A DNA stretch of 64,000 bases from an uncultured bacterium (GTDB lineage: Bacteria; Patescibacteriota; Minisyncoccia; Phycocordibacterales; GWA1-40-21), in the NCBI GenBank assembly GCA_963840885.1, contig CAWJAN010000005.1, positions 12,887 to 76,886 on the forward strand, given 5' to 3'. The notes under the pieces are model-generated. The model made no database searches and was not told the DNA's origin. It saw only the letters and a program-made list of their open reading frames with translations. Positions 7,098-43,827 of this stretch are shown here, in pieces. The position numbers and the translations under genes are program-made. Position 1 is the stretch's first letter, and each line of letters opens with the position of its first letter.

Positions 7098-7107
7098 TAT
7101 CAAATAA

Positions 7108-7136: not shown

Positions 7137-7294
7137 ATTTAAGTAAATAAATCTCCATCAGAGATTCATCTCACCGATTAAGCGTAAATGTTCAAATGTC
7201 GCAAAATCTGTGCGACATTTTTACATTTAATAAACTAATGCCTGTCTAAAATGATAGGCCAAAAAGCGGAAAAAAGCCGCTTTAAAACATCAAT

Positions 7295-8692: not shown

Positions 8693-8757
8693 TTGTGGCT
8701 TTAACCGGCCGGTTGTATAATTATACAAAGGTCGTTTAGAAAATTAATTATTTTCTT

Positions 8758-8970: not shown

Positions 8971-8991
8971 TATAGGCGACATTCTCAAAAA

Positions 8992-9025
8992 AACGGCCGG
9001 CCTCAAATGGTCCGGCCGTTTTTTC
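8992..9025 (+). terminator. Rho-independent terminator
   Basis: ACGGCCGGCC..GGTCCGGCCGT stem followed by a T tract. Confidence 0.6.
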
Positions 9026-9053
9026 GTATTCCAAATAAGGTATAATATTCTGG

Positions 9054-10928
9054 ATGAAGAAAACTCTGTCTTATTTTGATTTTGACAATATCCTGGCTTT
9101 TTTTCTTGTTGCCGTTCTCGCTTCTAATTATTTTGATTTTCTTAAATTTTCATACAGCGATTATATTCTGATTGCCGTAGCTATCATAGCTACGCTTCCT
9201 GTAATAAAGAGCGCTTATTATTCTGTCTTGGATAAAAAGATATCCGTTGACTTGCTTGCTGCAATAGCCCTGGTATTTTCTCTTTTGAGCTGGGAATGGG
9301 TTTCGGCGATATTCATAAACCTCATGCTTACCTCATCAAGAATACTTACCACATACAACCAGAACAAAGCAAGAAAAAACATACAAGCCCTTCTTAAACT
9401 GAAACCAAAAAAAACAAAAATCAAGAATTCCGAAGGAAAAATAATTGAGGTAAAGCCGGAATCCGTAAAGATCGGAGATACGGTAATAGTCGCTCTCGGA
9501 GAAAGGATTCCTATTGACGGCTCGGTCATAAGTGGAAGCGCAAGCATAGATGAATCTTCCCTTACAGGCGAATCAATGCCGGTATCTAAATCCGTAGGAG
9601 ATATGGCTTACAGCTCGACTCTGGTAGTTTCCGGCGGACTCGAAATAAAAGCAGAAAAAGTCGGCGCAGAAACGACTCTCGAAAAAATAATAGAACTGGT
9701 TGAAAAAGCCCAGATAGACAAGCCGGAGATAAGAACTTTCGCTGAAAAATTCGCAACCTGGTACATAGTTGTTATTTTCATTGCTTCCATAGCGGCTTAT
9801 TTCATAACGCGCAGCTTGTCCTTCGTTTTGGCTCTTATGCTTGTTGTCTGCGCTGACGATGTAGCCGTTGCTGTTCCTCTGGCTTTCCTTACGGCAATAG
9901 GATATGCGGCAAAAAATGGAGTAATAATAAAAGGAGCAAGCTTTATCGAGGCCCTTAAGGATGTAAAAGTCATATTCCTGGATAAGACCGGCACGCTTAC
10001 GAAAGGTATTCTCAATGTAGAAAAATTCGTTCCATGCAATAACTGCGATAAGGAAAAAATACTCAGGTATGCCGGAATGGTCTCTGTCTTTTCAAACCAC
10101 CCTATTTCAGAAGCCATAGAAAAATATGCGGAGAAAGAATACGTGGACGGACCTAATGAATATCTTCCATCTGATTTCAAAGAAGTGCAGGGAAGCGGAA
10201 TAGGCGCGAATATAGGAGATGAATTATTTTCTATGGGAAAAATTTCCTATATCGAAAACCTCGGGGTAAAAGTCAGCGAAGATTTTAAAAAAGAGATTCT
10301 TTCCGAAGAGGATAAGGGATACAACGTTACAGTGGCTTCTCTGGGCGATAAATTCGTCGGATACTTTATCCTTGCTGATGAAATAAAAGTTAATATTAAA
10401 AAAGAAATCGAGGAACTCAAAAAACTCGGGATTGAGAGGATAATAATGCTTACAGGAGACAACGAGAGGGTGGCGAAAAGAATATCTGAAACTCTTGGAA
10501 TAACCGAATATTATGCCGGGCTCTTGCCGGAACAAAAGCTTGATTTCATAAGAAAAACCTTGAGCAAAAAATACAAAACGATGATGGTTGGCGACGGAGT
10601 AAATGATGCTGCAGCGCTCAGTCTGGCTGATATAGGGGTCGCCATGGGGATGGTAGGCATGGATGTAACCATAGAATCCGCAGACATAGTGCTTATGAAA
10701 GACGATTTCTCCAAAATAACAAAGATCATACAGATGTCTCATTATGTTATGAAAATTTCAAGCCAGGATTTTATTATATGGGGTATTACCAATATTGTCG
10801 GACTTATCGGGGTATTCGCCGGAATACTCGGACCGAGCGGAGCCGCGGCATACAATTTCCTTACCGATTTTCTGCCTGTGGCGAATTCAGGCAGGATATT
10901 TTTCCTATATTTAGGCAGAAAAAAGTGA
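9054..10928 (+). CDS. P-type ATPase, P1B-like topology, with no N-terminal metal-binding domain and an atypical TM6 motif
   Basis: DKTGTLT phosphorylation motif and MVGDGVNDAAAL hinge. The TM6 region reads VVCADDVAVAVP where CopA has IACPCALGLATP. Confidence 0.8.
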   Translation: MKKTLSYFDFDNILAFFLVAVLASNYFDFLKFSYSDYILIAVAIIATLPVIKSAYYSVLDKKISVDLLAAIALVFSLLSWEWVSAIFINLMLTSSRILTTYNQNKARKNIQALLKLKPKKTKIKNSEGKIIEVKPESVKIGDTVIVALGERIPIDGSVISGSASIDESSLTGESMPVSKSVGDMAYSSTLVVSGGLEIKAEKVGAETTLEKIIELVEKAQIDKPEIRTFAEKFATWYIVVIFIASIAAYFITRSLSFVLALMLVVCADDVAVAVPLAFLTAIGYAAKNGVIIKGASFIEALKDVKVIFLDKTGTLTKGILNVEKFVPCNNCDKEKILRYAGMVSVFSNHPISEAIEKYAEKEYVDGPNEYLPSDFKEVQGSGIGANIGDELFSMGKISYIENLGVKVSEDFKKEILSEEDKGYNVTVASLGDKFVGYFILADEIKVNIKKEIEELKKLGIERIIMLTGDNERVAKRISETLGITEYYAGLLPEQKLDFIRKTLSKKYKTMMVGDGVNDAAALSLADIGVAMGMVGMDVTIESADIVLMKDDFSKITKIIQMSHYVMKISSQDFIIWGITNIVGLIGVFAGILGPSGAAAYNFLTDFLPVANSGRIFFLYLGRKK

Positions 10929-19651: not shown

Positions 19652-21229
19652 ATGAGAAGCATTCTATATCACACTAAGCATTTCATAAAAAACAATAAGT
19701 GGTGGTCGGCTTTGATAGCCATCGTCCTTCTTATAGTAATCTATTTCGTTTTCGTTAAAAAACCTGCAAGCACCATAGGAAGCACCGTTACCGTAGAAAG
19801 CAGGAATATAACAGAAGAGGTGAGTGCGACCGGAAACGTCAAGCCGCTCTCCGATATAAGCATGGCTTTTGAAACCGGGGGCAAAGTTTCCGACATCGCC
19901 GTTTCAATAGGAGACAAAGTATCGGCCGGGCAATATCTGGCTTCGGTATCTAATTCTGACCTTTCCGCCGCAGTAGACCAGGCGAAAGCGAGCTTGAGTG
20001 CGGCAGAAGCCGACCTTGCAATACTGAAAAACGGCTCAACCCCTCAGCAAATAGCCGTGAGCCAATCACAAGAACAAGAAGCTCTCGGAAATTTTAATCA
20101 GGCAAAAAGTGCTCTTATAAACTCGATACAAGACGCATACACAAAATCGGATGATGCCGTAAGGAACAAGGCTGATTCCATGTTCGATAATCCAAGAAGC
20201 TCGACTCCGAAGCTAAGCTTTGACACGACGAATTCACAGCTGTCTATAAATGTAGATTTGGAGAGGGAAAATATCGAGAATACCCTTTTAGACTGGAACA
20301 ATTCCTCAGTAAATCTTACTCCTGATTCGGATTTGCAGTCTGCTGCGGATATCGCAAATCAAAACCTAGACTTGATCAAAAATTTCCTGAACGACGTGAA
20401 TCTTTCGCTTAACAGCGCCGTCATAAGTTCTTCCGTCACTGAAGACGTCATAAGCAGCTGGCAGGCAAGCATAGCAACGGCAAGGACAAACATAGCGCTT
20501 GCAATAAGCAATATGTCTTCGGCTTCAACCCAATACAATTCCATGGAATCACTTTTGAAAGTCGCGGAAGATCAGCTTACTCTCACAAAAGCTCCCGCCA
20601 CAGACAACCAGATAAAAGCTCAGCAAGCGTTAGTGGACCAGGCAGCGGCTAATGTTGAAAATGCAAAAGCAAAACTTGAAAAAACAATCATACGTTCTCC
20701 TATAGACGGAACCATTTCCAGAGTCGATACCGATGTCGGGGAAACGGTACAAAGCGGGGTAAATGTGATTTCTGTTATTTCTTACGGCGAATACGAAGTG
20801 GAGGCTTTTATTCCGGAAGCGGATATAGCTAAAGTAAAGATAGGCGATGTGGCTACTACAACGCTTGATGCTTATGGTTCGGATACTTTTTTCCAGATGA
20901 CAGTAATAAAAATAGATCCGGCGGAAACAGTCATAGAAGGCGTCCCTACATATAAGGTGACTTTGAAATTCGCATCAGATGACAGCAGGATAAAATCTGG
21001 TATGACAGCAAACCTCGACATACTTACAGGGCAAAAATATGGCGTGCTTGCGGTGCCAGCAAGATCAGTTTATTCTGTCGATACCCAAAAATACGCGCAG
21101 CTGGTGGATTCTGAAAATAAAATCGCTGATGTTCCGGTTCAAACTGGTATGCGCGGAGTCGACGGATACATAGAAATCATTTCCGGTTTAAAGGAGGGAG
21201 ATACAATTGTAGGATCTCCGAATATCTAA
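19652..21229 (+). CDS. Efflux-transporter periplasmic adaptor subunit (HlyD/MacA family)
   Basis: N-terminal TM, a long coiled-coil, and a C-terminal beta-barrel region (IIRSPIDGTISRV...LAVPARSVY). Confidence 0.8.
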   Translation: MRSILYHTKHFIKNNKWWSALIAIVLLIVIYFVFVKKPASTIGSTVTVESRNITEEVSATGNVKPLSDISMAFETGGKVSDIAVSIGDKVSAGQYLASVSNSDLSAAVDQAKASLSAAEADLAILKNGSTPQQIAVSQSQEQEALGNFNQAKSALINSIQDAYTKSDDAVRNKADSMFDNPRSSTPKLSFDTTNSQLSINVDLERENIENTLLDWNNSSVNLTPDSDLQSAADIANQNLDLIKNFLNDVNLSLNSAVISSSVTEDVISSWQASIATARTNIALAISNMSSASTQYNSMESLLKVAEDQLTLTKAPATDNQIKAQQALVDQAAANVENAKAKLEKTIIRSPIDGTISRVDTDVGETVQSGVNVISVISYGEYEVEAFIPEADIAKVKIGDVATTTLDAYGSDTFFQMTVIKIDPAETVIEGVPTYKVTLKFASDDSRIKSGMTANLDILTGQKYGVLAVPARSVYSVDTQKYAQLVDSENKIADVPVQTGMRGVDGYIEIISGLKEGDTIVGSPNI

Positions 21230-21233
21230 AGCA

Positions 21234-21953
21234 GTGGCTCTCATAGAGGTAAAAAATCTTTCCAAAGTCTACGATAATGAGGGCGTAAAAACCGACGCTC
21301 TTCACGATATAAACTTGAATGTAGAAAAAGGCGAGTTTCTTGCGATTATGGGCCCGTCCGGTTCCGGCAAATCGACATTGCTGCAGATACTCGGCCTTTT
21401 GGACAATCATACGCATGGCACATATCATTTCGCCGACAAAAACGTAAAGCTTTACGATGAAAATGAAATCGCAAAGATAAGGAATCAAAAAATGGGATTT
21501 GTTTTTCAGGCATTCAACCTGCTTCCGCATCTGACACTCATAGAAAACGTTAAGATGCCTCTTTTGTATTCTGATAAGCCGGAACATGAATGGGATAAGC
21601 GCGCGGAAGACGCTCTTATATCAGTAGGCCTCGGACACAGGCTCACTCATCAGGCATTCCAGCTATCAGGAGGAGAAAAACAGCGCGTAGCTATAGCTCG
21701 CGCCCTGGTTAACGATCCTGAAGTTATTTTTGCCGATGAGCCTACCGGAAACCTGGATTCAAAATCAGGACAAGCCGTCATAGAGATAATAGAAAAGCTC
21801 AATTCTGAGATGGGACATACGATAATTCTGATAACTCACGAAACGTATACCGCAGAATATGCCCAAAGGATAGTTAAGCTTCTTGACGGACAGATAGAAA
21901 GCGACCATAAGGTGAAAAACAGAAAAACTAGCCGTGATCATTTTATAAAATAA
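21234..21953 (+). CDS. ABC transporter ATP-binding protein (MacB-type), paralog of 847-1563
   Basis: [24 protein letters not shown] and [11 protein letters not shown] motifs; about 55% identical to the first ATPase by eye. Confidence 0.85.
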
Positions 21954-23191
21954 TGAAATTAAGACATAGCATCAAAACAGCGACCGAAGGGCTAATGACG
22001 CACAAATCTCGTTCCGCTCTTACTATTATAGGAATCGTAATCGGCATAACCTCGATAATCCTTGTCATGTCTCTAGGCCAAGGAGCGCAAAATCTGATTC
22101 TTGGAGAAGTAAACGGGCTTGGAGCAACGACTATAGCCGTGATACCTGGAAAAATTTCAAGCGGACCGTCCAGCTTCGCAACAACGCTTTCCGATTCTCT
22201 GAAGCAAAAAGATCTTACCGCTATAGAAACAAAAACAAATGTCCCGTATGCGACCCGCGTCATGCCCGTAATGATAAGCGGCGCAAATGCCGTATATGGA
22301 AATAAGGTTTATCAAGTCGGATTATTCGGCGGAACGCAGCTGATGCAACAGATTTTCAATATTACCGTTGGCAGGGGAGATTTTTTTACCGATGACGATG
22401 TTTTAAGCAATCAGGCCGTTGCGATAATAGGAAATGACGTGAAAGACCATTTATTCGACGGTGAAGATCCTCTTGGTCAGAAAATCAGGATAAACAATAC
22501 GACTTTCAAGATTATCGGAGTATTGCCTGCAAAAGGGCAGTCCGGTTTCGTAAATTTTGACAGCGGAGTTATTATGCCGTACACGACCGCCCAGCAATAC
22601 GTACTCGGCGTAAAATATTTCAGCCGTATTATTGTTGAGGCCGACTCGCAAGATCATATACAGGCTACAGCAGAAGATATAACCAATACATTGAGAAATT
22701 CTCATAATATTACCGATCCTGCAAATGATGATTTCACCGTAGAGACTCAGGCGGATATAGCTTCAACGCTAAATACCGTAACGACAGCCCTGACTGCATT
22801 CCTTGCGGCAGTTGCAGCCATATCCCTTATAGTGGGCGGAATAGGGATCATGAATATAATGCTCGTATCGGTTACAGAAAGAACGAGGGAAATCGGCCTA
22901 AGAAAAGCTCTAGGGGCAACAAACCATGACATACTGGTACAATTTCTTCTTGAAGCTGTAATGCTTACCGGCTCCGGAGGAATAATTGGGATTATTTTGG
23001 GAGGTTCATTATCTTTCATAATATCTCTCATACTTAAAAACGCACTCGGCCTGAATTGGCAGTTTGTTTTTCCTTGGAGCGCAGCCGTCCTCGGTATTGT
23101 TGTTGCAAGCCTTGTAGGACTTGTTTTCGGAATCTATCCGGCACGGCAGGCATCAAGAAGAAGCCCTATGGAAGCCCTGAGATACGAATAA
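21953..23191 (+). CDS. ABC transporter permease (MacB/FtsX-type)
   Basis: Same architecture as 1572-2789, with REIGLRKALGATNHDI. Confidence 0.8.
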   Translation: MKLRHSIKTATEGLMTHKSRSALTIIGIVIGITSIILVMSLGQGAQNLILGEVNGLGATTIAVIPGKISSGPSSFATTLSDSLKQKDLTAIETKTNVPYATRVMPVMISGANAVYGNKVYQVGLFGGTQLMQQIFNITVGRGDFFTDDDVLSNQAVAIIGNDVKDHLFDGEDPLGQKIRINNTTFKIIGVLPAKGQSGFVNFDSGVIMPYTTAQQYVLGVKYFSRIIVEADSQDHIQATAEDITNTLRNSHNITDPANDDFTVETQADIASTLNTVTTALTAFLAAVAAISLIVGGIGIMNIMLVSVTERTREIGLRKALGATNHDILVQFLLEAVMLTGSGGIIGIILGGSLSFIISLILKNALGLNWQFVFPWSAAVLGIVVASLVGLVFGIYPARQASRRSPMEALRYE

Positions 23192-23233
23192 TAAGCTTTA
23201 CACTTTTAAAATTTAATTTATACTTTAAAGACT

Positions 23234-23464
23234 ATGGGATTCTTCAAAAATTTAATGCTTAAGCAAGCGCTCAAAACGCAAGCGAAAGATATGCCGCCTG
23301 AACAAAAAGATAAGCTCATGGCCGCATTCGAAAAAGATCCGGCATTCTTCGAAAATATAGAAAAACAGATAAAAATGCGAATGAAGCAGGGGAAAGGGCA
23401 GTTCGAAGCTTCAATGGAAGTAATGAAAGAAAATCAGGATAAGCTAAGAAAATTGATGCAATAG
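23234..23464 (+). CDS. Small hypothetical charged/helical protein (76 aa)
   Basis: ORF followed by a strong terminator. Confidence 0.4.
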   Translation: MGFFKNLMLKQALKTQAKDMPPEQKDKLMAAFEKDPAFFENIEKQIKMRMKQGKGQFEASMEVMKENQDKLRKLMQ

Positions 23465-23480
23465 ATATATAAATTTAGAC

Positions 23481-23520
23481 AAAAAAATAAGGCCGTCTCT
23501 TTTGGAGACGGCCTTTTTGA
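23481..23520. terminator. Bidirectional rho-independent terminator
   Basis: AAGGCCGTCTC-tttt-GGAGACGGCCTT stem flanked by A and T tracts, lying between convergent genes. Confidence 0.6.
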
Positions 23521-23535
23521 ATCTTGAAACTACTA

Positions 23536-24546
23536 CTAAGGCCTTATTACGAGGCCGGCGTTCACGGAGAATTCCGCAAACGTCGAGGTGTCGACTGTGA
23601 AGGGAATACTGGTCACGCTCCCGAGCTTATACAGCTCTCCTGAAAACGTGAACCCGAATCCGTCCGTGATGGGAAAAATTGATCCCAACTCGAACACTAT
23701 CGAGCTTGCCGTATCCGTGTGAGGGAACGGTGTCCCACCGATCATCAACTTATTGTCGATACCAGCGAACTTCACGCCGAGTCCCGCGTAAGGAAGCCAA
23801 TGTTCATCCTTAACCGGATAAACCTTGGCCATAAGCTCCCATGAATCAGTGATTCCCACAGTTCCGATTGATGCCCCGTAAACTTTCTTTTCGAGGGACG
23901 TATTTCCGGAATCATGAGAGACCATCAGGCCGACCTTGCCGGCAATGATTCCTTCAACCGAGAACTTCTGGCCTACATTGCTCGAGCTAGTCGTGGAAAA
24001 TCCTTGCGGATCTTCCGACTGACTTCCAAAGCTTGCTGCCACTTGTTCCCAACTGAACTGAAACCATCTGTCGCTGAACTTCCGATCAACCGATTTCTCT
24101 TTCACCAATTTTGTCGGTGAAGGAGTCGGGCTTGCCGTCGGTGAAACTTTCGCTTCGACGACAATAATCGTTCGCGATTCCTTGAGGACCTCGTTGTTCC
24201 GAGTCGTCTTCGTGTACACGATGGTGAACATTCCGATCTTGGACGTATCGATCATGTTGATCGCTACGAGCTTGATCGGTCCGTCAACATCGCGCGGTCC
24301 GTGAGCAATCGCGCCTGGATCTACATACACTGAACCTTTCATCACAGTCACCGGATTCTGCCCGATGATCTCGATGTAAAATGGAAACAGCTTTTTCTTG
24401 TGCTTCACGATCTTCTTGTGAGTGCTTTTGGCACTCGCTGAAGTCGTGTCTTTGTAGGGCGGCGCTTCATAAGCATTCGCCGCCCTCGCAATCGAAAAGC
24501 TGAACCAGAACAGCATCATGGTGATGAGAAACGTAAGCTTCTTCAT
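23536..24546 (-). CDS. Secreted protein on a GC-rich (compositionally foreign) segment. It has an N-terminal Ig-like module homologous to the repeats of the giant protein, a P/T/S linker, and a C-terminal beta-strand-rich domain
   Basis: Signal peptide MKKLTFLITMMLFWFSFSIARA. The module FYIEIIGQNPVTVMKGSVYVDPGAIAHG...TIVYTKT aligns to the APVITILGSNP..Y.DAGA consensus. About 55-58% GC against a ~39% background. Confidence 0.6.
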   Translation of the reverse strand: MKKLTFLITMMLFWFSFSIARAANAYEAPPYKDTTSASAKSTHKKIVKHKKKLFPFYIEIIGQNPVTVMKGSVYVDPGAIAHGPRDVDGPIKLVAINMIDTSKIGMFTIVYTKTTRNNEVLKESRTIIVVEAKVSPTASPTPSPTKLVKEKSVDRKFSDRWFQFSWEQVAASFGSQSEDPQGFSTTSSSNVGQKFSVEGIIAGKVGLMVSHDSGNTSLEKKVYGASIGTVGITDSWELMAKVYPVKDEHWLPYAGLGVKFAGIDNKLMIGGTPFPHTDTASSIVFELGSIFPITDGFGFTFSGELYKLGSVTSIPFTVDTSTFAEFSVNAGLVIRP

Positions 24547-25121: not shown

Positions 25122-28100
25122 ATGACTACAAACAAAAGAAACATCATCAAAATGCTCAGCAACGTATTCATCGTTGTCCTTTTTGCTGTTTCTTTTTCTT
25201 CCGTAGCATATGCTGATTACTCAACCACGACCGTCTTAAACACAAGCGGGTCATTTGTAGTTCCGCAAGGAGTTACTGGGTTGACCTTTAGCGTTGTTGG
25301 CGGAGGAGGAGGAGGCGGCGGAGGAGCATTCACGTTCGCAGGCGGAGGAGGAGGATCGGCTTCTGCCATTTTAAATACAAATATCTCTGTAACACCAGGA
25401 CAGACGATTTCTTACACTGTAGGAAACGGCGGTAATGGCGGATACGGAGGCTCAATGCAATTTGCCGGAGGCAATGGAACAAATGGAGGTTCAACTTCAT
25501 TCGGTTCCACGACAGTATCCGGAGGATTCGGAGGCCAAGGTGCAGCTTATGGAAATCCATCAAGCGGCATCGGCGGACTTGCGGGAGGCATTGGAGGATC
25601 CAACGGAACAAACGGAGACACATTCTTTGGCCAGAGAGTCAAAGGTGGAAACGGGGGTTCTAACGCACTCGGAACGGCGGGAGTCGGAGGTTCCGGTAAT
25701 TCTTCATCGTATGTTCTTGCAACCGCAGGAACGAACGGTGCGGGAGGGGGAGGAGCAAGCGGATGGCAGTTCAACTCAAATGGCACAGCTGATGCTGGCG
25801 CCACTGGAGGAAACGGCTCAATCGTTGTTTCTTACTATGCAGATCTTACTGCCCCTGTAATTACAATTTTAGGATCAAATCCTGAAACAATAACAGTTGG
25901 CACTCCATACGCTGATGCCGGAGCTATAGCTCTCGACAATATCGATGGAACGACAACAGTCGCAACTGTTTCAAACAATGTTGATATAAACACTGTTGGA
26001 ACATACGAAGTTGTTTACTCTGCTACAGATACAGCAGGAAACAATTCAATGGCAACAAGGACGGTTAATGTTATCGCTGCTCCTGACACCATTGCACCTG
26101 TTATTACTATCCTGGGTTCTAATCCGGCAACCACAACCGTGGGATCAACATACGTTGATGCCGGAGCTACAGCCTTCGATAATGTCGACGGTACAACTAC
26201 TGTAAACATCGCCTCAAACGATGTAGACACAAATGCAACAGGAACATATTCTGTTGTTTATACTTCGACAGATTCTTCAGGAAACACGGCCACAGCAACA
26301 AGAGTTGTTATTGTGGGCGTAGCATCTCCAGTAGATACTACTGCTCCAACAGCACCTCTTATTTCAACGACAACGGCCGCAACCGGAACAATAACCCTCT
26401 CTGAGGATATTGCCTGGTTTGATTCAACTGATTTGGAATCCGGTGTAGCTTATTATCTCTATCTTTGGGATAACTCAAGCGCAACCGTGCTTTCAACTAC
26501 GACCGCGGGAGTCTCGACGACAACTTCGACAACTACCAACTTAACGGCATTTGGAACATATTGGTTCCATGTCGCAGCTGTTGATAATGCCGGAAACGTG
26601 TCCTTGACGACAACTTACGGTCCATTTCTGATTTCTGATTCAAATGTCCTTTATGTAAATTCAACCATCGGAGGAACACTTTACTCATTGTTTTCGCCAT
26701 CTCTTGCCGAAGCTGCAATAGCTTCTACGACAGGCGCAACAACAATAGTAAATTCGAGCATTTCCGTATGGTGGGACATAAACGATTCAAACGTAATAAA
26801 TACAACAGTAAACGATGTGGCGATGAACTTGGTTGATGCGACAAATTCAACACTTATCAATGACGATATCGGAAACTGCCAGATCATAAATTCTGACGTT
26901 GAAAATTATTACTTGAGAAATTGCTACGTGGCATTCTCTGTGCTTGATCCATCCACACTCTACTCGTTCACAAATTCAACGAGCACGAACTCACAGATCT
27001 ATGCTTCAAATATCGACAGTTCAACAATCGATCATTCATACGTGGCGACTTCGACTATCGGCAATTCGAACATTTCATTCTCGACAACGACTGATTCGAC
27101 CGTCGCTTCATCAACGATAAGCAACGGTTCGATTATTTCTTCTTCAACAGTGGAAATAAGCACTGTCGATAATTCAAATGTATCGTCTTCAACAGTAAGC
27201 ACGAGTACCGTCACCGATTCTTCAATAGTAAATTCTACATTTACGAACTCGGCTTCGGACAATTCAACAACGACTGATTCGGCTGTTGATACATCATCGC
27301 TTACAAATTCAACCGTAAGCTCAAGCTCCGCTACAAATTCGACGATAACCGATTCAACGCTTACAAACAGCACCTCGACTGATTCGACGATAACATCTTC
27401 GAATCTCGACACAGTTGTCGTTGCAAGCTCGACGATAGCAAGCTCGACGATAGCAGATGCAACAATTACCGATGCGATAATAATCGACAATACTATCTAC
27501 AGCGGCACGATCACATATAACGGAACAACAACCGTCATATCTACATCGACTCCGCTCGGAAGCCTTATCGAATATGCGCCGGTAGCAGCATTCTCTGTCG
27601 CTACAAGCAATCTTCAGATGAACATCACGGACAATACCGTCGACCTTAACAGCGGAACGGTATTTCCTGACAGCTGGACATATATGTGGGATTTCGGAGA
27701 CGGAACCTCGACAACAGTCCTTGCATCAACAACCGGACAAAACATATCTTATACGTACGCAACAAGCGGAACATATACGGTATCTTTGACCGTTACTGAC
27801 GGATACGGAAAAGTTTCCACGACTTCAAGCCAGGTAACCATAGTAAATAATCCTGATACGATTGCTCCAGTAATTACGATTCTCGGATCAAATCCGGACA
27901 GCGTAGTTGCTGGAACAACTTACACCGATGCAGGCGCAACAGCATTCGACAATGTAGACGGAACCACAACAGTGGCAACCATCTCTAACAATGTTGATAC
28001 TTTGACTCTCGGAACATACCAGGTTGTTTACTCGGCTACTGACACGGCAGGAAACAATGCGACAGCTACAAGAACTGTAAATGTAGTTTCTGCTCCGGAC

Positions 28101-30854
28101 ACGATTCCTCCGGTAATTACAATAAACGGATCGAGCACTGTAAACGTATTCCAAAACTCTACATATACGGATCAGGGCGCGACAGCATTCGACAATGTTG
28201 ATGGAACGACAAGTGTAAGCATCTCATTTAACGATGTAGATACTTCGGCTACCGGAACATATTCCGTCGTATATTCTTCAACCGATTCTTCAAGCAATAC
28301 GGCATATGCTACGAGAACCGTAGATGTCATCGGAGCGCCGGGCGACGTAGTTCCTCCAGTCATCACCATCACAAACGGAACGCCGACAACGGTTTTGCAG
28401 AATTCAACATATGTTGATGACGGCGCAACCGCATTCGATAACGTTGATGGTACGACTTCAGTTGCAACCATCTTCAATGATGTCGATACTGCAGCTACCG
28501 GAACATATTCAGTAGTCTATTCGGCAACGGATACTGCGGGAAATAATTCGCAGGCGACGAGGACGGTGGATGTTATTGCCGGACCAACCGACAATACGCC
28601 TCCAGTCATCACCATCACAAACGGAACGCCGACAACGGTTTTGCAGAATTCAACATATGTTGATGACGGCGCAACCGCATTCGATAACGTTGATGGTACG
28701 ACTTCAGTTGCAACCATCTTCAATGATGTCGATACTGCAGCTACCGGAACATATTCAGTAGTCTATTCGGCAACGGATACTGCGGGAAATAATTCGCAGG
28801 CGACGAGGAATGTAAATGTCGTCGAAGCTACAAGCTCAGACAATATTCCGCCTGTAATCACAATAATAAACGGAACACCTACAACTATCACAGTTGGTTC
28901 AGTTTATACGGATGCAGGAGCTACGGCATTCGACAATATTGATGGAACTACGACAGTAACGACAATCTCAAACAATGTTGATTCAAATACTGTCGGAACA
29001 TATCAGGTTGTCTACTCAGCCACAGACGTAGCTGGAAATAACGCAACGGCGACAAGAGACGTAAATGTCATAAGCGGAGCTTCCGACAATACGCCTCCAG
29101 TCATCACCATCACAAACGGAACGCCGACAACGGTTTTGCAGAATTCAACATATGTTGATGACGGCGCAACCGCATTCGATAACGTTGATGGTACGACTTC
29201 AGTTGCAACCATCTTCAATGATGTCGATACTGCAGCTACCGGAACATATTCAGTAGTCTATTCGGCAACGGATACTGCGGGAAATAATTCGCAGGCGACG
29301 AGGATAGTAAACGTAATCGATCAGGACACTGTTGCCCCAGTCATAACGATTCTTGGCAATAATCCGGAAACCATTACTCAGTACATGACATATACAGATG
29401 CAGGCGCAGTAGCATTCGATAATGTCGACGGTTCAACGACTGTAACGATAATCTCGAACAATGTTGATACTTCGGCAACTGGAACATATTCTGTCGTCTA
29501 CTCAGCAACCGATATGTCAGGCAATGCCGCAACGGCAACCAGAACAGTTAATGTTACAGCGGACACACAGGCACCTGTCATAACGATTCTCGGAAATAAT
29601 CCTGAGAATGTGTTGCTAAACTCAGTCTATACTGATGCAGGCGCAACGGCCTTCGACAATGTCGACGGCACGACAACAGTCAATGCCACAGGCACGGTAG
29701 ATACCGCAGCGACTGGCACATACCAAATCGTCTATTCATCGACTGATTCTTCAAGCAATACGGCATATGCTACGAGAACTGTAGATGTCATTGCAGCTTC
29801 AAGCTCGGCAAAACAGATTCTTTCCTTCGACTTCAACGGCCTATCACCTGCAGCAACGGGAACGATCAACCAGATTTCCGGAACTATAAATTTGACTGTT
29901 CCTTCAGGAACAAATGTTACAAATCTTGTTCCGACAATCTCATTGTCCGCAAGCGCAAGCGTCAATCCTGGATCAGGAGCGGCTAATGACTTCACAAATC
30001 CTGTCGTATATACGGTTACCGCCCAAGACCTTTCAACATCGACATACACGGTCACGGTAACAGTTGCGACAACATCGACATCGACGCCAGATACTACTGC
30101 TCCGGCAATAACGATACTCGGGTCAAATCCAGTAACGCTTACTGTCGGCTCGTCATACACTGATGCAGGCGCAACAGCATTCGACAATGTTGATGGCGTA
30201 ACAACTGTAACGATAGCTTCAAACGATGTTAATACTTCGATTGCAGGTTTGTATCATGTCGTATATACATCGACTGATTCTTCAAGCAACACTTCGTTTG
30301 CAACAAGAACAGTTAATATCATTTCGACAAGTTCAAACAGTGGGGGACAAGTAACTATATTCGGCGGAGTCCCTGGACCATACGTTCCACCGACAACTCC
30401 GACATATACCGAACCAACACCTTCAACACCAGTTGTAACCACACCGGAAACACCTGCAGCACCTACGACACCGCAAACGCCGGCAAACAATACGCCTTCC
30501 GCAGGAACGAATAACAGCATCTCCGGAACGGAAAGCTCGTCTGGCAATCAGGCAAGCGGCGCATCAAATGCTGGAAATTCCATAGATTCTGCACTTGGCG
30601 GAATAATAGGAACGACTGGTGAATCGCAGGGCGGAGGATCAACATCTGCGGAAACAGCTACGACCGCAGCATCAACGACCGCAAACTCGTCAAACAAGAG
30701 TTTGGTGGCAACAGTACTTGAAGGTTTGTCGAGCGCAAAAGCTCTCTGGACAATACTCATACTTTTGCTCATCGCAGTAGCTTCATACATAACTTTCAGA
30801 CACTATAGCGAAAACGAAAGCCAAAACCAAAGCCAAAATAAGAAAACTAAATAA
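25122..30854 (+). CDS. Giant (1910 aa) cell-surface protein. Architecture is signal/TM, Gly-rich region, tandem Ig-like (DUF5011/HYR-like) modules, PKD domain, S/T/N-rich beta-solenoid-like region, Pro/Thr stalk and a C-terminal TM anchor
   Basis: A single uninterrupted ORF. The motifs were read directly from the translation (see finding). Confidence 0.85.
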   Translation: MTTNKRNIIKMLSNVFIVVLFAVSFSSVAYADYSTTTVLNTSGSFVVPQGVTGLTFSVVGGGGGGGGGAFTFAGGGGGSASAILNTNISVTPGQTISYTVGNGGNGGYGGSMQFAGGNGTNGGSTSFGSTTVSGGFGGQGAAYGNPSSGIGGLAGGIGGSNGTNGDTFFGQRVKGGNGGSNALGTAGVGGSGNSSSYVLATAGTNGAGGGGASGWQFNSNGTADAGATGGNGSIVVSYYADLTAPVITILGSNPETITVGTPYADAGAIALDNIDGTTTVATVSNNVDINTVGTYEVVYSATDTAGNNSMATRTVNVIAAPDTIAPVITILGSNPATTTVGSTYVDAGATAFDNVDGTTTVNIASNDVDTNATGTYSVVYTSTDSSGNTATATRVVIVGVASPVDTTAPTAPLISTTTAATGTITLSEDIAWFDSTDLESGVAYYLYLWDNSSATVLSTTTAGVSTTTSTTTNLTAFGTYWFHVAAVDNAGNVSLTTTYGPFLISDSNVLYVNSTIGGTLYSLFSPSLAEAAIASTTGATTIVNSSISVWWDINDSNVINTTVNDVAMNLVDATNSTLINDDIGNCQIINSDVENYYLRNCYVAFSVLDPSTLYSFTNSTSTNSQIYASNIDSSTIDHSYVATSTIGNSNISFSTTTDSTVASSTISNGSIISSSTVEISTVDNSNVSSSTVSTSTVTDSSIVNSTFTNSASDNSTTTDSAVDTSSLTNSTVSSSSATNSTITDSTLTNSTSTDSTITSSNLDTVVVASSTIASSTIADATITDAIIIDNTIYSGTITYNGTTTVISTSTPLGSLIEYAPVAAFSVATSNLQMNITDNTVDLNSGTVFPDSWTYMWDFGDGTSTTVLASTTGQNISYTYATSGTYTVSLTVTDGYGKVSTTSSQVTIVNNPDTIAPVITILGSNPDSVVAGTTYTDAGATAFDNVDGTTTVATISNNVDTLTLGTYQVVYSATDTAGNNATATRTVNVVSAPDTIPPVITINGSSTVNVFQNSTYTDQGATAFDNVDGTTSVSISFNDVDTSATGTYSVVYSSTDSSSNTAYATRTVDVIGAPGDVVPPVITITNGTPTTVLQNSTYVDDGATAFDNVDGTTSVATIFNDVDTAATGTYSVVYSATDTAGNNSQATRTVDVIAGPTDNTPPVITITNGTPTTVLQNSTYVDDGATAFDNVDGTTSVATIFNDVDTAATGTYSVVYSATDTAGNNSQATRNVNVVEATSSDNIPPVITIINGTPTTITVGSVYTDAGATAFDNIDGTTTVTTISNNVDSNTVGTYQVVYSATDVAGNNATATRDVNVISGASDNTPPVITITNGTPTTVLQNSTYVDDGATAFDNVDGTTSVATIFNDVDTAATGTYSVVYSATDTAGNNSQATRIVNVIDQDTVAPVITILGNNPETITQYMTYTDAGAVAFDNVDGSTTVTIISNNVDTSATGTYSVVYSATDMSGNAATATRTVNVTADTQAPVITILGNNPENVLLNSVYTDAGATAFDNVDGTTTVNATGTVDTAATGTYQIVYSSTDSSSNTAYATRTVDVIAASSSAKQILSFDFNGLSPAATGTINQISGTINLTVPSGTNVTNLVPTISLSASASVNPGSGAANDFTNPVVYTVTAQDLSTSTYTVTVTVATTSTSTPDTTAPAITILGSNPVTLTVGSSYTDAGATAFDNVDGVTTVTIASNDVNTSIAGLYHVVYTSTDSSSNTSFATRTVNIISTSSNSGGQVTIFGGVPGPYVPPTTPTYTEPTPSTPVVTTPETPAAPTTPQTPANNTPSAGTNNSISGTESSSGNQASGASNAGNSIDSALGGIIGTTGESQGGGSTSAETATTAASTTANSSNKSLVATVLEGLSSAKALWTILILLLIAVASYITFRHYSENESQNQSQNKKTK
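28353..28562 (+). repeat. Intragenic direct repeat, copy A (~210 bp, identical to B and C)
   Basis: Begins CCTCCAGTCATCACCATCACAAACGG and ends GCAGGCGACGAGG. Confidence 0.8.
28599..28808 (+). repeat. Intragenic direct repeat, copy B
   Basis: Same sequence as copy A, offset by 246 nt (82 codons). Confidence 0.8.
29094..29303 (+). repeat. Intragenic direct repeat, copy C
   Basis: Same sequence, 495 nt downstream of copy B. Three identical antisense ORFs in the ORF track confirm the identity. Confidence 0.8.
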
Positions 30855-35661: not shown

Positions 35662-36537
35662 ATGACAGACTTCTACGTAGTTAAATCGACAGGAGAAAAA
35701 CAGCTCTTTGACTATGGAAAGCTTGAGAGCTCGCTCCGCCGATCAGGTGCCGACGAACAGCTCATTGAAAGCATCGTCAAAGAAGTGAGCGAGACCGCCT
35801 ATGACGGAATGACGACAGAAGAAATCTACAAGAAAGCGTTCTCTATACTCCATCAAAAACATAATCCGGCAGCTATCAGATATTCTTTGAAAAAAGCCGT
35901 GGCCGAGCTCGGGCCTACAGGCTTTCCGTTCGAAAAATTCGTGGCGGAAATATTCAAAGCGCAAAATTATGAGACCCTTACAGACCAGATAATACACGGC
36001 AAATGCGTGGACCACGAGGTAGATGTAGTTGCCTGGAAAGACAATGACCTGATAATGTGCGAGGCAAAATTCCATACTGATTTCGCCTTGAAATCGGATC
36101 TTAAAGTGGCTCTTTACGTAAAAGCCAGATGGGACGATATTCTTGGAAAGCCATACACCTACGGCGGAAAGCAGCTTAAGCTTACGGAAGGGTGGCTCAT
36201 TACCAATACGAAATTCAGCTTATCGGCAATAAAATACGGCTCATGCATTCCGCTCTTCAAGCTTGTCGGATGGAATTATCCTTACGATAAGAATCTCCAT
36301 TACCTTATTGAAAAATACAATCTTATTCCGGTAACTGCGCTTACATCGATTAATACCGCTGAAAAAAACGCGGTAATAGCCAAAGGTATGATTCTTTCTA
36401 AGAATCTTCTTGATCCTAAAGTTTTCGAAGGGATGAGCTTCAGCGATGGAAAAATAAAAACCATACAGGATGAGGTGAAAGACCTGGTATCTCAGTCTGA
36501 GCTTCATTACGAACAAAGATACGGAAAGGCAAAATAA
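35662..36537 (+). CDS. ATP-cone domain fused to a Mrr-like (PD-(D/E)XK) restriction endonuclease domain
   Basis: The N-terminal ~90 aa match the ATP-cone pattern (VVKSTGEKQLFDYGKL...TTEEIYKKAF). Downstream is FEKFVAEIF...VDHEVDVVAW...CEAKFH (D..E.K). Confidence 0.6.
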   Translation: MTDFYVVKSTGEKQLFDYGKLESSLRRSGADEQLIESIVKEVSETAYDGMTTEEIYKKAFSILHQKHNPAAIRYSLKKAVAELGPTGFPFEKFVAEIFKAQNYETLTDQIIHGKCVDHEVDVVAWKDNDLIMCEAKFHTDFALKSDLKVALYVKARWDDILGKPYTYGGKQLKLTEGWLITNTKFSLSAIKYGSCIPLFKLVGWNYPYDKNLHYLIEKYNLIPVTALTSINTAEKNAVIAKGMILSKNLLDPKVFEGMSFSDGKIKTIQDEVKDLVSQSELHYEQRYGKAK

Positions 36538-39403: not shown

Positions 39404-41200
39404 ATGAAATCGGACGAAATACGCGAAAGATACCTTAAATTCTTTGAAAAAAGAGGGCATAAAATAATCCCTTCGGCATCGCTTGTACCAGAAAATGATC
39501 CCTCATCTCTTTTTATAAGCGCAGGAATGCAGCCAATGGTTCCTTATCTGCTTGGTGCAAAACATCCGGCTGGCGTAAGGATAGTGGATGTCCAGAAATG
39601 CGTTAGAACAGGCGATATTGATGATGTGGGTGATAACCGCCACTGCACCTTCTTTGAAATGCTTGGAAACTGGTCGCTCGGCGATTACTTTAAAAAAGAA
39701 TCGATCGACTGGAGTTTGGAATTTATTACAAATAAAAAAGAAGGTTTGGGATTGGATCCGAAAAGGCTTTATGTCACGGTTTTCAAGGGCGAAGACGGAA
39801 TTCCGCGCGATGAAGAATCGATAAATATCTGGAAGGATACTTTTAAAAAACCTGGGATTGACGCGGAAGTGGCAGGTAAAGATGAATATATAAAAGACGA
39901 TATAAGAATTATTCCGCTTGGAAAAGATGATAATTTTTGGATTGCCGGAAATACCGGTCCATGCGGAGGAGACACTGAATTTTTTTACGATGTCCTGGGA
40001 AATGGAAAAGTTGAGGGTGATTTTCATGAATTGGTAAAATCCGGAAGAATCATTGAAATTTGGAATAATGTTTTCATGGAATTCAATAAAACTGCAGACG
40101 GCAAATATGAAAAGCTGGCAAAACCGAATGTGGATACTGGAATGGGACTAGAGAGAACGGCTGTTGTAATGCAAGGCAAGGATAATGTTTTTGAAACCGA
40201 TCTTTTCGAGCCTTTGATGTCTTACATTCATTCAAATTCTGAAAAATACGACGAAAGACTTGCAAGAATTGTTGCAGACCATATACGTTCCACAGTCTTC
40301 ATTATTTCTGACGGAGTAATGCCTGCAAATACAGAAGCGGGATACGTGCTCAGAAGAGTTTTGAGAAGAGCCATAAGATCGATAGATAATTTGAAACTTA
40401 AGGAAGAATCTATTTTTGATTTAGCCAAGATAGTTATAAAAAATTATTCCCATGCTTATCCGAGCCTGAAAACAAAAGAAAGCGAAATATTAGATGCAAT
40501 CAAAAAAGAAGATGCAAAATTCAGAGAAACTCTGGATAAGGGCCTAAAGGAATTCGAAAAAGGCACCAGTGCATTCGACTTGTTCCAGACCTACGGCTTT
40601 CCGCTTGAGATGACGCTTGAGCTGGCTATGGAAGAGGGAAGGCATATAGATGTGGATGAGTTTAACCGTAAGATGAAAGAACATCAGGAAATTTCTCGTG
40701 CAGGAAGCGAACAGAAATTCAAAGGCGGGCTTGCGAGCCACGGCGAGATGGAGACGAAATATCATACCGCGACCCATATGATGCTCGCGGCGCTTCAGAA
40801 AGTCCTAGGCGCGCCGATAGTCCAGAAGGGAAGCAATATCACTGCGGAAAGAATGCGCTTTGATTTCAACTGGCCGCAAAAGCTGACCAAAGAACAGATA
40901 AAAGGGGTGGAAGATATGGTAAATGAAAAAATCGCCGAGAAACTGCCGGTAGAAATGGTTGAGCTGCCGAAAGCCGAAGCGCAAAAAATCGCCACTACGC
41001 TCGCATTCGACCTTTCAAGCTACGGCGATATCGTAAAAGTTTATAAAATCGGCTATGTGCCGGAAATTGACAAAGCCTTCAGTATAGAATTCTGCGGCGG
41101 CCCGCATGTAAAAAATACAGGCGAGCTCGGGCATTTCAAAATCGCAAAAGAAGAGGCTGTAAGCGCAGGAGTAAGGAGAATAAAAGCTGTGCTTGAATAA
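39404..41200 (+). CDS. alaS: Alanine--tRNA ligase, short form (598 aa; catalytic, tRNA-recognition and editing domains present, C-Ala domain absent)
   Basis: N-terminal core FISAGMQPMVPY, editing-domain HxxxH (HTATHMM) and CGGPHV motifs. Confidence 0.85.
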   Translation: MKSDEIRERYLKFFEKRGHKIIPSASLVPENDPSSLFISAGMQPMVPYLLGAKHPAGVRIVDVQKCVRTGDIDDVGDNRHCTFFEMLGNWSLGDYFKKESIDWSLEFITNKKEGLGLDPKRLYVTVFKGEDGIPRDEESINIWKDTFKKPGIDAEVAGKDEYIKDDIRIIPLGKDDNFWIAGNTGPCGGDTEFFYDVLGNGKVEGDFHELVKSGRIIEIWNNVFMEFNKTADGKYEKLAKPNVDTGMGLERTAVVMQGKDNVFETDLFEPLMSYIHSNSEKYDERLARIVADHIRSTVFIISDGVMPANTEAGYVLRRVLRRAIRSIDNLKLKEESIFDLAKIVIKNYSHAYPSLKTKESEILDAIKKEDAKFRETLDKGLKEFEKGTSAFDLFQTYGFPLEMTLELAMEEGRHIDVDEFNRKMKEHQEISRAGSEQKFKGGLASHGEMETKYHTATHMMLAALQKVLGAPIVQKGSNITAERMRFDFNWPQKLTKEQIKGVEDMVNEKIAEKLPVEMVELPKAEAQKIATTLAFDLSSYGDIVKVYKIGYVPEIDKAFSIEFCGGPHVKNTGELGHFKIAKEEAVSAGVRRIKAVLE

Positions 41201-41266: not shown

Positions 41267-42448
41267 ATGTATGCAATGAGTATTTTTTCTTCCAAAAATA
41301 AATCTTCCTTATCTCTTGTTTTTGATTTGAGGGATTCATATGTCTCGATTGCCGCAATAAATTTCGTAAATGAAAGCAAGCCCGAAATAATATTATGTCA
41401 AAACTTTGAAATCAATCCGTCAAACCACGAAGATTACGGTAAATACACATCCTCCATGCTAAGTTCTGTAAAAGAAGGGATTCTGGCCGTTAGGAAAGAT
41501 CTGGCCAAAAAGGGAAGCAAAGAAAGCATAAGAAAATACCATTTCTTCATAGGATCTCCCTGGAGCGTTTCGGAAAGCAAAACCATAAAGATAATTAAAA
41601 ACAAAAAATTCGAAGTTACAAAAGAGATACTAGGAAAAATAGTCAGCGACGAGGAAGAAACGATAAAAAAGGATATGAGCACCAGCATAAAGCTGGAAAA
41701 CTGGAAAATCCTCGAAGAAAAAATCGTGGAGTTCAAGCTGAACGGCTATAAGGCAGAAAAGGTCTTCGACAAAAAGATAACCGAGCTCGAGGCCGAGCTC
41801 TTCGTCTCTTTCATTCCGGTAGAAGTCTATAAGGGCCTGTCAGATATAACTTCAGGCGGACATATAAAGACAACTATGAATTCGTCCATGCTTGCTTCAT
41901 ATATATTTTTTAGGGATCTTTATTCGGACAAAAATAATTTCATATGCGTGGATATAGGCAATTTCGTAACTGATATATTCTTCGTGAGAAACGATGTTAT
42001 ATCAGGAGCAGTATCTTTTCCGCTCGGAGAAAAAGATCTGATAAAAACCATGATGTCGCACGCCAAAATACCGGAAAGTTCGATAATGACATACATAAAT
42101 ATGATGTGCCACGGAGCCTGCGAAGAGGAAACCAAAAAAGAAACGAAGAGACTACTGAAAGAGAGCAAAAACATATGGCTGGAAAAGTTCAAGCTTGCTA
42201 TGTCGAAAATATCCTCGGAAACGGATATTCCAAAGAATATTTTCGTCATTGAAAATACAAATCTGGTAAGAGCCATGATGAAAGAGTTGTCTGACGAGGA
42301 TGTGAATATTATGGGAATGAAAATGGCTGTAGAACATATAAGCGAGGCGATGATAGACAATAATATCGAAAATGGAAAAGATTTTAAAAACGAGCCTTAT
42401 ATAAAGATAGATACGGTATTTTTGGATAAGATAATATTTAAAAAATAA
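41267..42448 (+). CDS. Actin-like ATPase-fold protein (FtsA/PilM-like), hypothetical
   Basis: Phosphate-1-like LVFDLRDSYVSIA and phosphate-2/adenosine-like FICVDIGNFVTDIFFV. The C-terminus (TVFLDKIIFKK) could be amphipathic. Confidence 0.4.
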   Translation: MYAMSIFSSKNKSSLSLVFDLRDSYVSIAAINFVNESKPEIILCQNFEINPSNHEDYGKYTSSMLSSVKEGILAVRKDLAKKGSKESIRKYHFFIGSPWSVSESKTIKIIKNKKFEVTKEILGKIVSDEEETIKKDMSTSIKLENWKILEEKIVEFKLNGYKAEKVFDKKITELEAELFVSFIPVEVYKGLSDITSGGHIKTTMNSSMLASYIFFRDLYSDKNNFICVDIGNFVTDIFFVRNDVISGAVSFPLGEKDLIKTMMSHAKIPESSIMTYINMMCHGACEEETKKETKRLLKESKNIWLEKFKLAMSKISSETDIPKNIFVIENTNLVRAMMKELSDEDVNIMGMKMAVEHISEAMIDNNIENGKDFKNEPYIKIDTVFLDKIIFKK

Positions 42449-42468
42449 AATTCAAACTTTTTAAACCC

Positions 42469-43827
42469 ATGGCTAGAAAAATAATACAGGACATCATAGT
42501 TAAAGATAAAAAAAACGACCATGCGTCGAAAAAGATCGAGGCCGAAAGGCATTTGTTTTTTAGGGAAAAAATATACGATAATAATGATGATGTATTTGCC
42601 AAAAAACTTAACGAGCTTAAAGATAAGGAGCATATGTTTGAAAAAAATGATGACTCGGAATTTCCTAAAGAAAAAGTTTCCAAAAACTCTGTTTATTTTC
42701 TATGGGCCCTTGGCTTTGCACTTATCGTCACAATAGTTTTCCTTCTGTCTTCTGTTTTTGCAACTGCAAAAATAATCATAACGCCGAAAAATACCGATTT
42801 AAGCATGAGTGATACATATACTGCAAGCGATAATAAAGATGCTGCCGGTCTTCATTATGAAATTATGACCGTGGAAAAAACGATGTCAAAATCCCTTCCT
42901 ACAAGCGGCGAGGAAAGCGTCGAAAGAAAAGCCATCGGAAAAGTCACCATATACAACAAATACAGCACCCAAACCCAGCGTCTGATAAACAATACGAGAT
43001 TGGAAACGCCTGACGGACTCATTTACAGGATAAGGGAATCTGTGGATGTTCCGGGAATGAGCGGTTCGACTCCGGGAAGCGTAACAGTAGATGTAATAGC
43101 CGATGAATCCGGCGACAAATACAATATGAATGTCAGCGACCTGAAAGGCGATTTCACGATTCCTGGATTTGCCGGCAGCCCGAAATTCGACGGATTTTTT
43201 GCAAGGATAAGTTCAGACATAACTGGTGGCTACATAGGAAATGTTAAAAGCGTATCAAACAATGATCTGACTGCCGGAAGAAACCAGCTGAAAAATGATT
43301 TGCAAACTGAACTCATAAAAGAAGTTTACGACCAGAAGCCGGACGGATACTTAATATTCGACAATAACTACTATACCGATATGAACGACCTGCCAGACAA
43401 TTCAAGCACTAGCGATTATTCCATCTCCGAAGACGGAACGATACATGCGATAATATTCAGCAGATCCGATTTAGCGGATTTCCTGGCAAAAAACAAGATA
43501 AGCGGTTTTGACGGATCAGAAGTCGATATCCTTCCCGGTGATGATTTCACTTCCTCAATTTCCGGCACAACGGCGCAGCCTTGGAACGAACATACTTTGA
43601 AAATAAGCTTTTCGGGAAATATCAAGATAGTCTGGGTTTACAATGGCGGCGACATAATAAGCGACATCGCAGGCCAGAATAAATCAGTAATACCGGCCAT
43701 TCTGGACAAATATAAGACTTCAGTGGAAGCGATAACTGCTAGCATAAATCCTTCCTGGGTAAAAACATTCCCCAAGAATCCTAAAAAAATAAGCATCGTT
43801 GACTCGGTTACGGGAAACTCCATATAA
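42469..43827 (+). CDS. Bitopic membrane protein with a ~70-aa cytoplasmic N-terminus, one TM and a ~350-aa extracytoplasmic domain. It is a possible partner of the actin-like ATPase
   Basis: TM segment YFLWALGFALIVTIVFLLSSVFA. Confidence 0.4.
   Translation: MARKIIQDIIVKDKKNDHASKKIEAERHLFFREKIYDNNDDVFAKKLNELKDKEHMFEKNDDSEFPKEKVSKNSVYFLWALGFALIVTIVFLLSSVFATAKIIITPKNTDLSMSDTYTASDNKDAAGLHYEIMTVEKTMSKSLPTSGEESVERKAIGKVTIYNKYSTQTQRLINNTRLETPDGLIYRIRESVDVPGMSGSTPGSVTVDVIADESGDKYNMNVSDLKGDFTIPGFAGSPKFDGFFARISSDITGGYIGNVKSVSNNDLTAGRNQLKNDLQTELIKEVYDQKPDGYLIFDNNYYTDMNDLPDNSSTSDYSISEDGTIHAIIFSRSDLADFLAKNKISGFDGSEVDILPGDDFTSSISGTTAQPWNEHTLKISFSGNIKIVWVYNGGDIISDIAGQNKSVIPAILDKYKTSVEAITASINPSWVKTFPKNPKKISIVDSVTGNSI

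Follow-up and report, generated by a model that had tools for sequence, protein, structure and literature searches.

Length-variable surface proteins and the gene at 25122-30854

Periscope proteins, among which Rib/alpha C/R28, SasG/Aap and Sgo_0707 are counted, possess stalks of DNA-identical tandem modules, which are proposed to let the stalk change in length through recombination within the gene (Whelan et al. 2021, PMC8201768). The threshold used to screen for such modules was a size of more than 50 residues and an identity of at least 80% (PMC8201768). Fibrillar adhesins and giant Bap-like proteins are described, in statements of PMC8286594 and, for the Acinetobacter BAP, of PMC4647330, as carrying module arrays that are polymorphic between strains. 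For the surface-exposed protein CagY of Helicobacter pylori, one statement of PMC2194252 is that recombination between direct repeats “invariably yields in-frame” variants. The gene presented here lies in a 64-kb stretch of contig CAWJAN010000005.1 (the window, meaning the whole stretch of DNA that was analysed), from an uncultured bacterium of the Candidate Phyla Radiation (CPR; Patescibacteria). It encodes a putative repetitive surface protein of 1910 aa and contains three identical in-frame tracts, which were probably produced by intragenic gene conversion within an older array of modules.

With coordinates 25122-30854 on the forward strand, the gene is the longest open reading frame (ORF) in the window. 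Its product matches the Pfam family PF16403 (Bact_surface_Ig-like, formerly DUF5011) in 11 stretches (E 2.9e-153, 498.6 bits against a cut-off of 27), the best of which spans profile positions 1-71 of 71. These stretches are called modules D1 to D11. Eight of them, D3-D10, form a central array, and the identical tracts make up the cores of D5, D6 and D8.

Several traits are shared with the periscope proteins. A surface protein with a non-repeat N-terminal region and a C-terminal anchor would be present here as well, judged from a signal-peptide-like N-terminus and a hydrophobic helix, both read by eye from the translation. The putative stalk consists of tandem folded modules of ~80 aa, mostly immunoglobulin-like (Ig-like), with DNA-identical repeats. 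The repeat of R28 measures 237 nt or 79 aa (PMC7098570), compared to the 246-nt, 82-aa unit found here, and the structure predicted for D5-D6 matches tandem Rib domains (6s5y). However, only three of the 11 modules are homogenised, the others being like those of an ordinary multidomain protein, and the identical copies are not all adjacent. The screening threshold is reached by only one adjacent pair, D5/D6 (72 of 82 residues identical, 88%), with a median of 64% aa identity among the modules of the protein. Repeat-number variation among strains marks the periscopes, whereas two species were compared here, with eight central modules in each. In addition, the domain family is PF16403 and not Rib, G5-E or SHIRT, a putative C-terminal transmembrane helix takes the place of LPXTG, and the host is an uncultivated CPR bacterium and not a pathogen. 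By analogy, the gene may work like that of a periscope protein, but it is not a demonstrated member of this group. The Rib/alpha C (Alp) family itself was considered and rejected. The Pfam scan of the 1910-aa protein lists no Rib family, its translation contains no LPXTG motif, and the sole link is the fold-level likeness to 6s5y.

The resemblance to fibrillar adhesins and Bap-like proteins lies in a long multidomain surface protein with many Ig-like “stalk” modules and distinct non-repeat domains. Adhesion and polymorphism, however, belong to those proteins, whereas the present gene is known from sequence alone, and the combination of Gly_rich_2, an OmpL47-type barrel, a Ser/Thr-rich region, PKD and PF16403 is specific to this CPR lineage. 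CagY is similar in its intragenic direct repeats, all offsets being multiples of 3 here as well. It differs in being part of a type IV secretion system, in its shorter and far more numerous repeats, and in rearrangements that were shown experimentally.

A further comparison concerns the evolution of the repeats. In concerted evolution by gene conversion, paralogous units within one genome are more alike than positional orthologues. The same is observed here, with sharp-edged tracts set in diverged flanks, but the homogenisation is partial, having reached only some modules of the array, and very recent. Repetitive surface proteins of bacteria are well known to contain identical in-frame modules, and current understanding is left unchanged. 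What the gene offers is a clear case of concerted evolution acting on part of a single gene, for which a sister-species orthologue allows conversion and duplication to be separated.

Three identical tracts and the sister-species orthologue

An earlier, sequence-only reading of the window had described three nucleotide-identical copies with in-frame offsets of 246 and 495 nt and had called them very recent; these claims are borne out. By string comparison, positions 28353-28562, 28599-28808 and 29094-29303 are the same letter for letter. The maximal exact tracts are 211 nt long for 28353/28599 and 28353/29094, and 222 nt long for 28588/29083 (copy 2/copy 3). Both offsets can be divided by 3, and the first position of the tract is in frame 0 of the gene. 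Each copy corresponds to 70 codons (PPVITI...QATR), which form the core of its module. Tandem Repeats Finder reports the same region as an array at 28353-29304 with a period of 246 and 3.9 copies. The array and its parts are organized as follows:

25122-30854, + strand: gene for the putative repetitive surface protein, 1910 aa (ORF listing, Pfam, NCBIfam)
27864-29798, + strand: central array, in which eight PF16403 modules (D3-D10) follow one another every 237-249 nt, colinear with modules d2-d9 of the orthologue described below
28353-28563, + strand: identical copy 1, D5 core, 70 codons plus 1 nt (string comparison); probable donor lineage, closest to orthologue module d4
28564-28598, + strand: diverged last half-strand and linker after D5, TVDVIAGPTDNT, whose last 11 nt are common with the linker before D8
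28599-28809, + strand: identical copy 2, D6 core, with identity to copy 3 starting from 28588
28810-29093, + strand: linker, diverged module D7 (core from 28848) and linker before D8; D7 is not overwritten
29094-29304, + strand: identical copy 3, D8 core, with identity to copy 2 starting from 29083

The edges of the tracts are sharp. Just outside them, 13-24 of 36 nt are identical (about 36-67%), and the linkers flanking the cores are ~50% identical. A perfect run of 211 nt at a per-site background identity of ~65% has a probability of ~3e-40. Module D7 shares 64% nt identity with the repeat core, and module pairs other than D5/D6/D8 share 55-74%. In these other pairs, synonymous sites are saturated: among 39-57 same residues, only 12-32 codons are identical. 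All 45 four-fold-degenerate codons of each copy are identical among the three copies. In the AlphaFold2 model, the last identical residue, R74, falls halfway along the final beta-strand (residues 69-79). Since the tract thus ends inside the last strand, its edge is a DNA-level edge and not a domain boundary.

Within the 64-kb window, no exact direct repeats of at least 25 nt were found besides these tracts and two shorter matches in the same gene, and BLASTN of the window gave no copy of the tract outside the gene. The first of the shorter matches is an exact 35-nt identity between 28284-28318 (3' end of D4) and 29745-29779 (3' end of D10), with P ~2e-4 for this pair, and it belongs to a stretch of ~47 nt with one mismatch. 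The second is an exact 29-nt match between D3 (27927) and D11 (30162). Both are likely remnants of older conversion tracts.

The orthologue of a sister species (protein P0002) is encoded on contig L003, and the same species is also represented by a truncated contig, L001. P0002 aligns colinearly with the 1910-aa protein, at 68% aa identity. Its central array is likewise composed of eight modules, d2-d9, which align with D3-D10 without a module-sized gap. For six of the eight linkers, aa identity between the two proteins is highest at the same position. The linker after D6, NVNVVEATSSDNI, is 69% identical to the orthologue linker at this position, MVNVVEATTTDII, and the one after D8, IVNVIDQDTV, is 70% identical to its counterpart TVNVIEQDTI. 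Module D7 shows 75% nt identity with its positional orthologue d6, the top value of the matrix. Because both species carry the same eight modules, with linkers matching by position, the identical copies are not added modules; only the cores were replaced.

The comparison also bears on the direction and the age of this replacement. Module d4, which occupies the position of D5 in the orthologue, resembles the repeat core most (72% nt identity, versus 66% for d5 and 65% for d7), and D5 is therefore the probable donor, although the direction of copying is suggestive only. Four-fold sites are 42% identical between the window gene and the orthologue and 100% identical among the copies, from which it follows that the conversion events are very recent. 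At the N-terminal side, the number of modules differs between the species, two versus one. D1 (25851-26093), which is most like D3 (74% nt identity), faces a gap of 81 aa in P0002; module gain or loss thus does occur in this gene, away from the identical copies. P0002 carries 29 extra residues in the Ser/Thr-rich region, and its own gene contains a tract of 122 nt with 93% identity between d4 and d7.

Probable gene conversion, its alternatives and its possible consequences

The favoured explanation, to which a probability of about 0.7 is given, is that the cores of D6 and D8 were recently overwritten by a D5-type core via intragenic gene conversion. The eight-module array would be old, with D6 and D8 already present before the species split, and non-reciprocal intragenic recombination would have copied the D5-type core over theirs. 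At least two conversion events would be required, and in one of them 11 nt of the preceding linker would have been copied along between D6 and D8. Linkers that had diverged would have stayed in place, and they may determine where the tracts end by forming a heterology barrier. What is found agrees with the marks of intragenic gene conversion, namely a sharp-edged tract, diverged flanks and, in a sister lineage, orthologues that match the converted units by position.

The sequence-only reading had left the choice between duplication and gene conversion, and only the second part of this proposal fits. If one module had been duplicated twice, the array would have gained two modules, and the copies would still be undiverged. 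Copies 1 and 2 do lie next to each other, with a 246-nt period as in a tandem duplication, and the N-terminal module number does differ between the species, D1 being absent from the orthologue. Such an origin is nevertheless very improbable, as the central array holds eight modules in both species without a module-sized gap in the alignment, and copy 3 is parted from copies 1 and 2 by the old, orthologous D7. Furthermore, a duplicated 246-nt unit would bring its linker, whereas the 35-38-nt segments between the cores are ~50% identical, the immediate flanks 36-67%, and the linkers after D6 and D8 match the orthologue linkers at the same positions, as six of the eight do in total. It is even harder to believe that the identity is kept by selection on an RNA, binding-site or antisense element, or that it was made by a diversity-generating retroelement (DGR) or by antigenic variation from silent cassettes. 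Compared with shuffled sequence, the 211-nt tract has the more stable fold (z = -3.4), but this is not repeat-specific, the z-scores of all eleven modules being similarly negative (-1.1 to -4.2). Rfam has no match in the gene and reports four tRNAs only in the window, and an RNA element was rejected on these grounds. An antisense reading frame is present three times as well (28352-28468, 28598-28714 and 29093-29209), with a peptide ending in KMVATEVVPSTLSNAVAPSSTYVEFCKTVVGVPFVMVMTGG. The earlier reading had taken this peptide as a confirmation of the repeats. The three occurrences are real, but they are the reverse-complement mirror image of the repeat and no independent confirmation; the start shown as “M” is a non-ATG, Leu codon, and the antisense ORF was rejected. 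Between the template and the variable repeat of a DGR, differences are found at adenines; the copies described here are free of mismatches. No extra, silent copy of the tract exists outside the gene anywhere in the 64 kb, and no reverse transcriptase occurs among the 40 neighbouring proteins scanned, so that a DGR target and silent cassettes were both rejected.

An assembly artefact would mean that the true copies are near-identical or differently numbered, and that a repeat node of the assembly graph (a bubble-popped consensus), or a consensus polished with multi-mapped reads, was threaded three times. Perfect identity and shared tract edges would be the outcome. The tract of 211-222 nt exceeds a 150-nt Illumina read and the usual k-mers. 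A precedent that supports this explanation is the R28 gene, whose 237-nt repeat could not be assembled or counted from 150-nt paired reads (PMC7098570). The three copies share one and the same 3' end nucleotide, contig L001 of the sister species is interrupted within this array, and only one contig is known to carry the window's protein. An artefact is considered unlikely all the same. The unique linkers and D7 are colinear with an independently assembled orthologue, and the assembly path through the repeat is therefore as expected. Assemblers collapse near-identical sequence but do not turn 65%-identical modules identical, so even then the true copies would be highly similar and the biological conclusion would stand, and long exact tracts recur across unrelated assemblies of the PF16403 family. 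The warning of the earlier reading about assembly collapse or expansion at this site is reasonable. With regard to genome quality, a 1-kb stretch of the metagenome-assembled contig is to be flagged, with a copy number that is not trustworthy without long reads.

Gene conversion, the preferred explanation, itself has several points against it. The donor call rests on 72% versus 65-66% nt identity over 210 nt. One 3' nucleotide ends the identity in all three copies, though at least two events are needed; a heterology barrier formed by the ~50%-identical linkers can account for this common edge, but a collapsed assembly-graph node threaded three times explains it equally well. Efficient homologous recombination is hard to start at ~65% identity, and the recipients must already have been partly similar to the donor. 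The two species are separated by a deep split and yet both have eight central modules, and this speaks against length changes that become fixed often. Finally, the perfect identity, as opposed to near-perfect identity, and the copy number come from one assembly and could still reflect the assembler.

Once in place, the identical copies would serve as substrates for in-frame loss or gain of modules by slippage or homologous recombination. Recombination between them would delete or duplicate 246, 495 or 741 nt, which is 82, 165 or 247 aa, or one, two or three modules. As all these offsets keep the frame, only length variation is expected and no on/off phase variation. The phase variation that had been put forward from the sequence is thus not upheld, recombination between in-register copies always keeping the reading frame. 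The RecA-mediated mechanism named there is assumed. In the best-studied analogue, the alpha C protein, repeats are deleted independently of recA, according to the title of a paper cited in PMC7098570. The gene is a candidate for a variable-length surface protein, with a stalk length predicted to change by recombination. CPR cells are thought to live attached to host cells. A periscope-type mechanism in such cells, in which ongoing conversion keeps a subset of modules DNA-identical and yields in-frame length variants of 8 to 14 modules, is a rather doubtful possibility. If true, length variants of a major host-facing surface protein would tune its reach or escape recognition, and the periscope-protein concept would extend to an uncultivated, ultra-small bacterial lineage.

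Protein architecture, relatives and neighbouring genes

Besides PF16403, Pfam matches Gly_rich_2 and PKD in the 1910-aa protein, and NCBIfam an OmpL47-type barrel. The features outside the central array are the following:

25122-25214, + strand: putative Sec signal peptide, aa 1-31, MTTNKRNIIKMLSNVFIVVLFAVSFSSVAYA, with a basic N-region, a hydrophobic core and an AYA motif, read by eye from the translation
25245-25838, + strand: glycine-rich domain PF21722, aa 42-239, at the membrane-distal end of the mature protein (Pfam, E 3.2e-10)
25851-26321, + strand: modules D1 and D2 (PF16403), D1 without a counterpart in the sister-species orthologue
26418-26615, + strand: OmpL47-type beta-barrel domain, aa 433-498 (NF047446, E 1e-19)
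26979-27491, + strand: Ser/Thr/Asn-rich degenerate repeat region, aa 620-790 (composition S50 T38 I18 N15 of 171 residues)
27666-27839, + strand: PKD domain, aa 849-906 (Pfam)
30099-30326, + strand: module D11 (PF16403), set apart from the central array by a non-Ig segment
30363-30500, + strand: Pro/Thr-rich low-complexity spacer, read from the translation
30741-30797, + strand: hydrophobic helix near the C-terminus, ALWTILILLLIAVASYITF, with a basic tail behind it, read from the translation as a putative membrane anchor

The glycine-rich domain is highly conserved in the orthologue P0002, in which the C-terminal hydrophobic helix is conserved as well. The Ser/Thr/Asn-rich region (aa 620-790) has no Pfam match; within it, Tandem Repeats Finder detected a 15-nt tandem repeat at 27423-27455. 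Judged from its sequence, the product would be a large membrane-anchored protein located at the surface of the CPR cell.

A model of the two modules D5-D6, obtained with AlphaFold2 at a predicted local distance difference test (pLDDT) of 90.4, is all-beta with seven strands per module. Its predicted template modelling score (pTM) is only 0.56 and the inter-domain orientation is unreliable. Foldseek matches this model to tandem Ig-like arrays with E down to 3e-9. The matches include the Ig domains of a Moritella chitinase, the tandem Rib domains 6s5y (E 4e-6, 25% identity, template modelling score 0.33), SraP and cadherins. The PF16403 modules are accordingly assigned to a predicted Ig-like, all-beta sandwich fold. 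At the RNA level, most module segments within 25851-30310 are more stable than dinucleotide-shuffled controls (z -1.1 to -4.2), which is a general property of the module sequence.

An identical protein is present in a public collection (P0001), known from a single contig of 77,089 bp. An exact look-up of the window protein and of P0001 in the contig index returned no record, and a 35-mer from the repeat had 0 matches in the Joint Genome Institute (JGI) metagenomes. A scan of the GTDB species representatives retrieved one real relative only, the sister species represented by L001, next to a weak match in Kurthia. A second metagenome scan with an alignment of two sequences found the same sister contig and two distant loci, and no sequence of the same species. 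Named homologues of the protein include those of Minisyncoccia, Kaiserbacteria and Paceibacterota, all of them CPR, as well as of DPANN archaea and several non-CPR bacteria.

Among 105 homologues with at least two modules, ten contain module pairs that are at least 95% identical in protein, the typical median being ~50%. Exact in-frame tracts of 312, 196 and 163 nt were found at locus L007, of 396, 221 and 171 nt at L008, and of 125 and 98 nt at L009, a Minisyncoccia metagenome-assembled genome. Patchy homogenisation thus recurs among multi-PF16403 proteins. L007 (European Nucleotide Archive ERZ25067264, ctg822730_17x_l, 7400-8400) is a stronger case of the same homogenisation. It encodes a protein of 2830 aa with DUF285 and PF16403 domains, in which the 312-nt repeat has an offset of 498 nt, and the 196-nt and 163-nt repeats an offset of 249 nt. 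Judged by its name, this contig may come from a long-read assembler.

The truncated sister-species contig L001 (JALOCI010000080.1, positions 1-9632) was deposited as “Bacteroidales bacterium” bin 7 and is probably mis-binned or mislabelled. Its gene order is that of the window, with HlyD, an ABC ATPase, a MacB permease, a small Ig protein on the minus strand and the giant gene, whose product is ~65% identical to that of the window. L001 and L003 differ at only 11 positions over their shared 2894 nt. L001 stops inside the module array, at a point equivalent to position 3106 of L003, which is the start of a 173-nt tract with 82% identity between d3 and d9 (L003 3105-3277 and 4566-4738). The repeat probably caused the assembly to break at this point.

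The genes surrounding the giant gene are ordinary bacterial housekeeping genes, and the best named matches of the window's DnaK are from Candidatus Paceibacterota, at ~88% identity. Together with the named homologues of the large protein, this makes a CPR bacterium, of a Paceibacteria-like kind, the most likely source of the window. Upstream lie genes for an HlyD-like adaptor (19652-21229), an ABC ATPase (21234-21953) and a MacB/FtsX permease (21953-23191). Between the permease and the giant gene, the minus strand encodes a protein of 336 aa with one PF16403 module (23536-24546). ORFs matching this set (19652-24546) in size, order and strand are also present in the sister species, and these genes might serve the surface protein in its export or as its partners.

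Further away, alanyl-tRNA synthetase (39404-41200, 598 aa) and aspartyl-tRNA synthetase (56223-57620, 465 aa) are markedly shorter than typical bacterial ones, the latter matching its 590-position model in two pieces. Such short enzymes agree with a reduced CPR genome. At 41267-43827, two ORFs lie side by side (393 and 452 aa) that are without a Pfam or NCBIfam match. At 35662-36537, a protein of 291 aa contains both an ATP-cone and an Mrr-type restriction endonuclease domain, two domains that are not usually combined.

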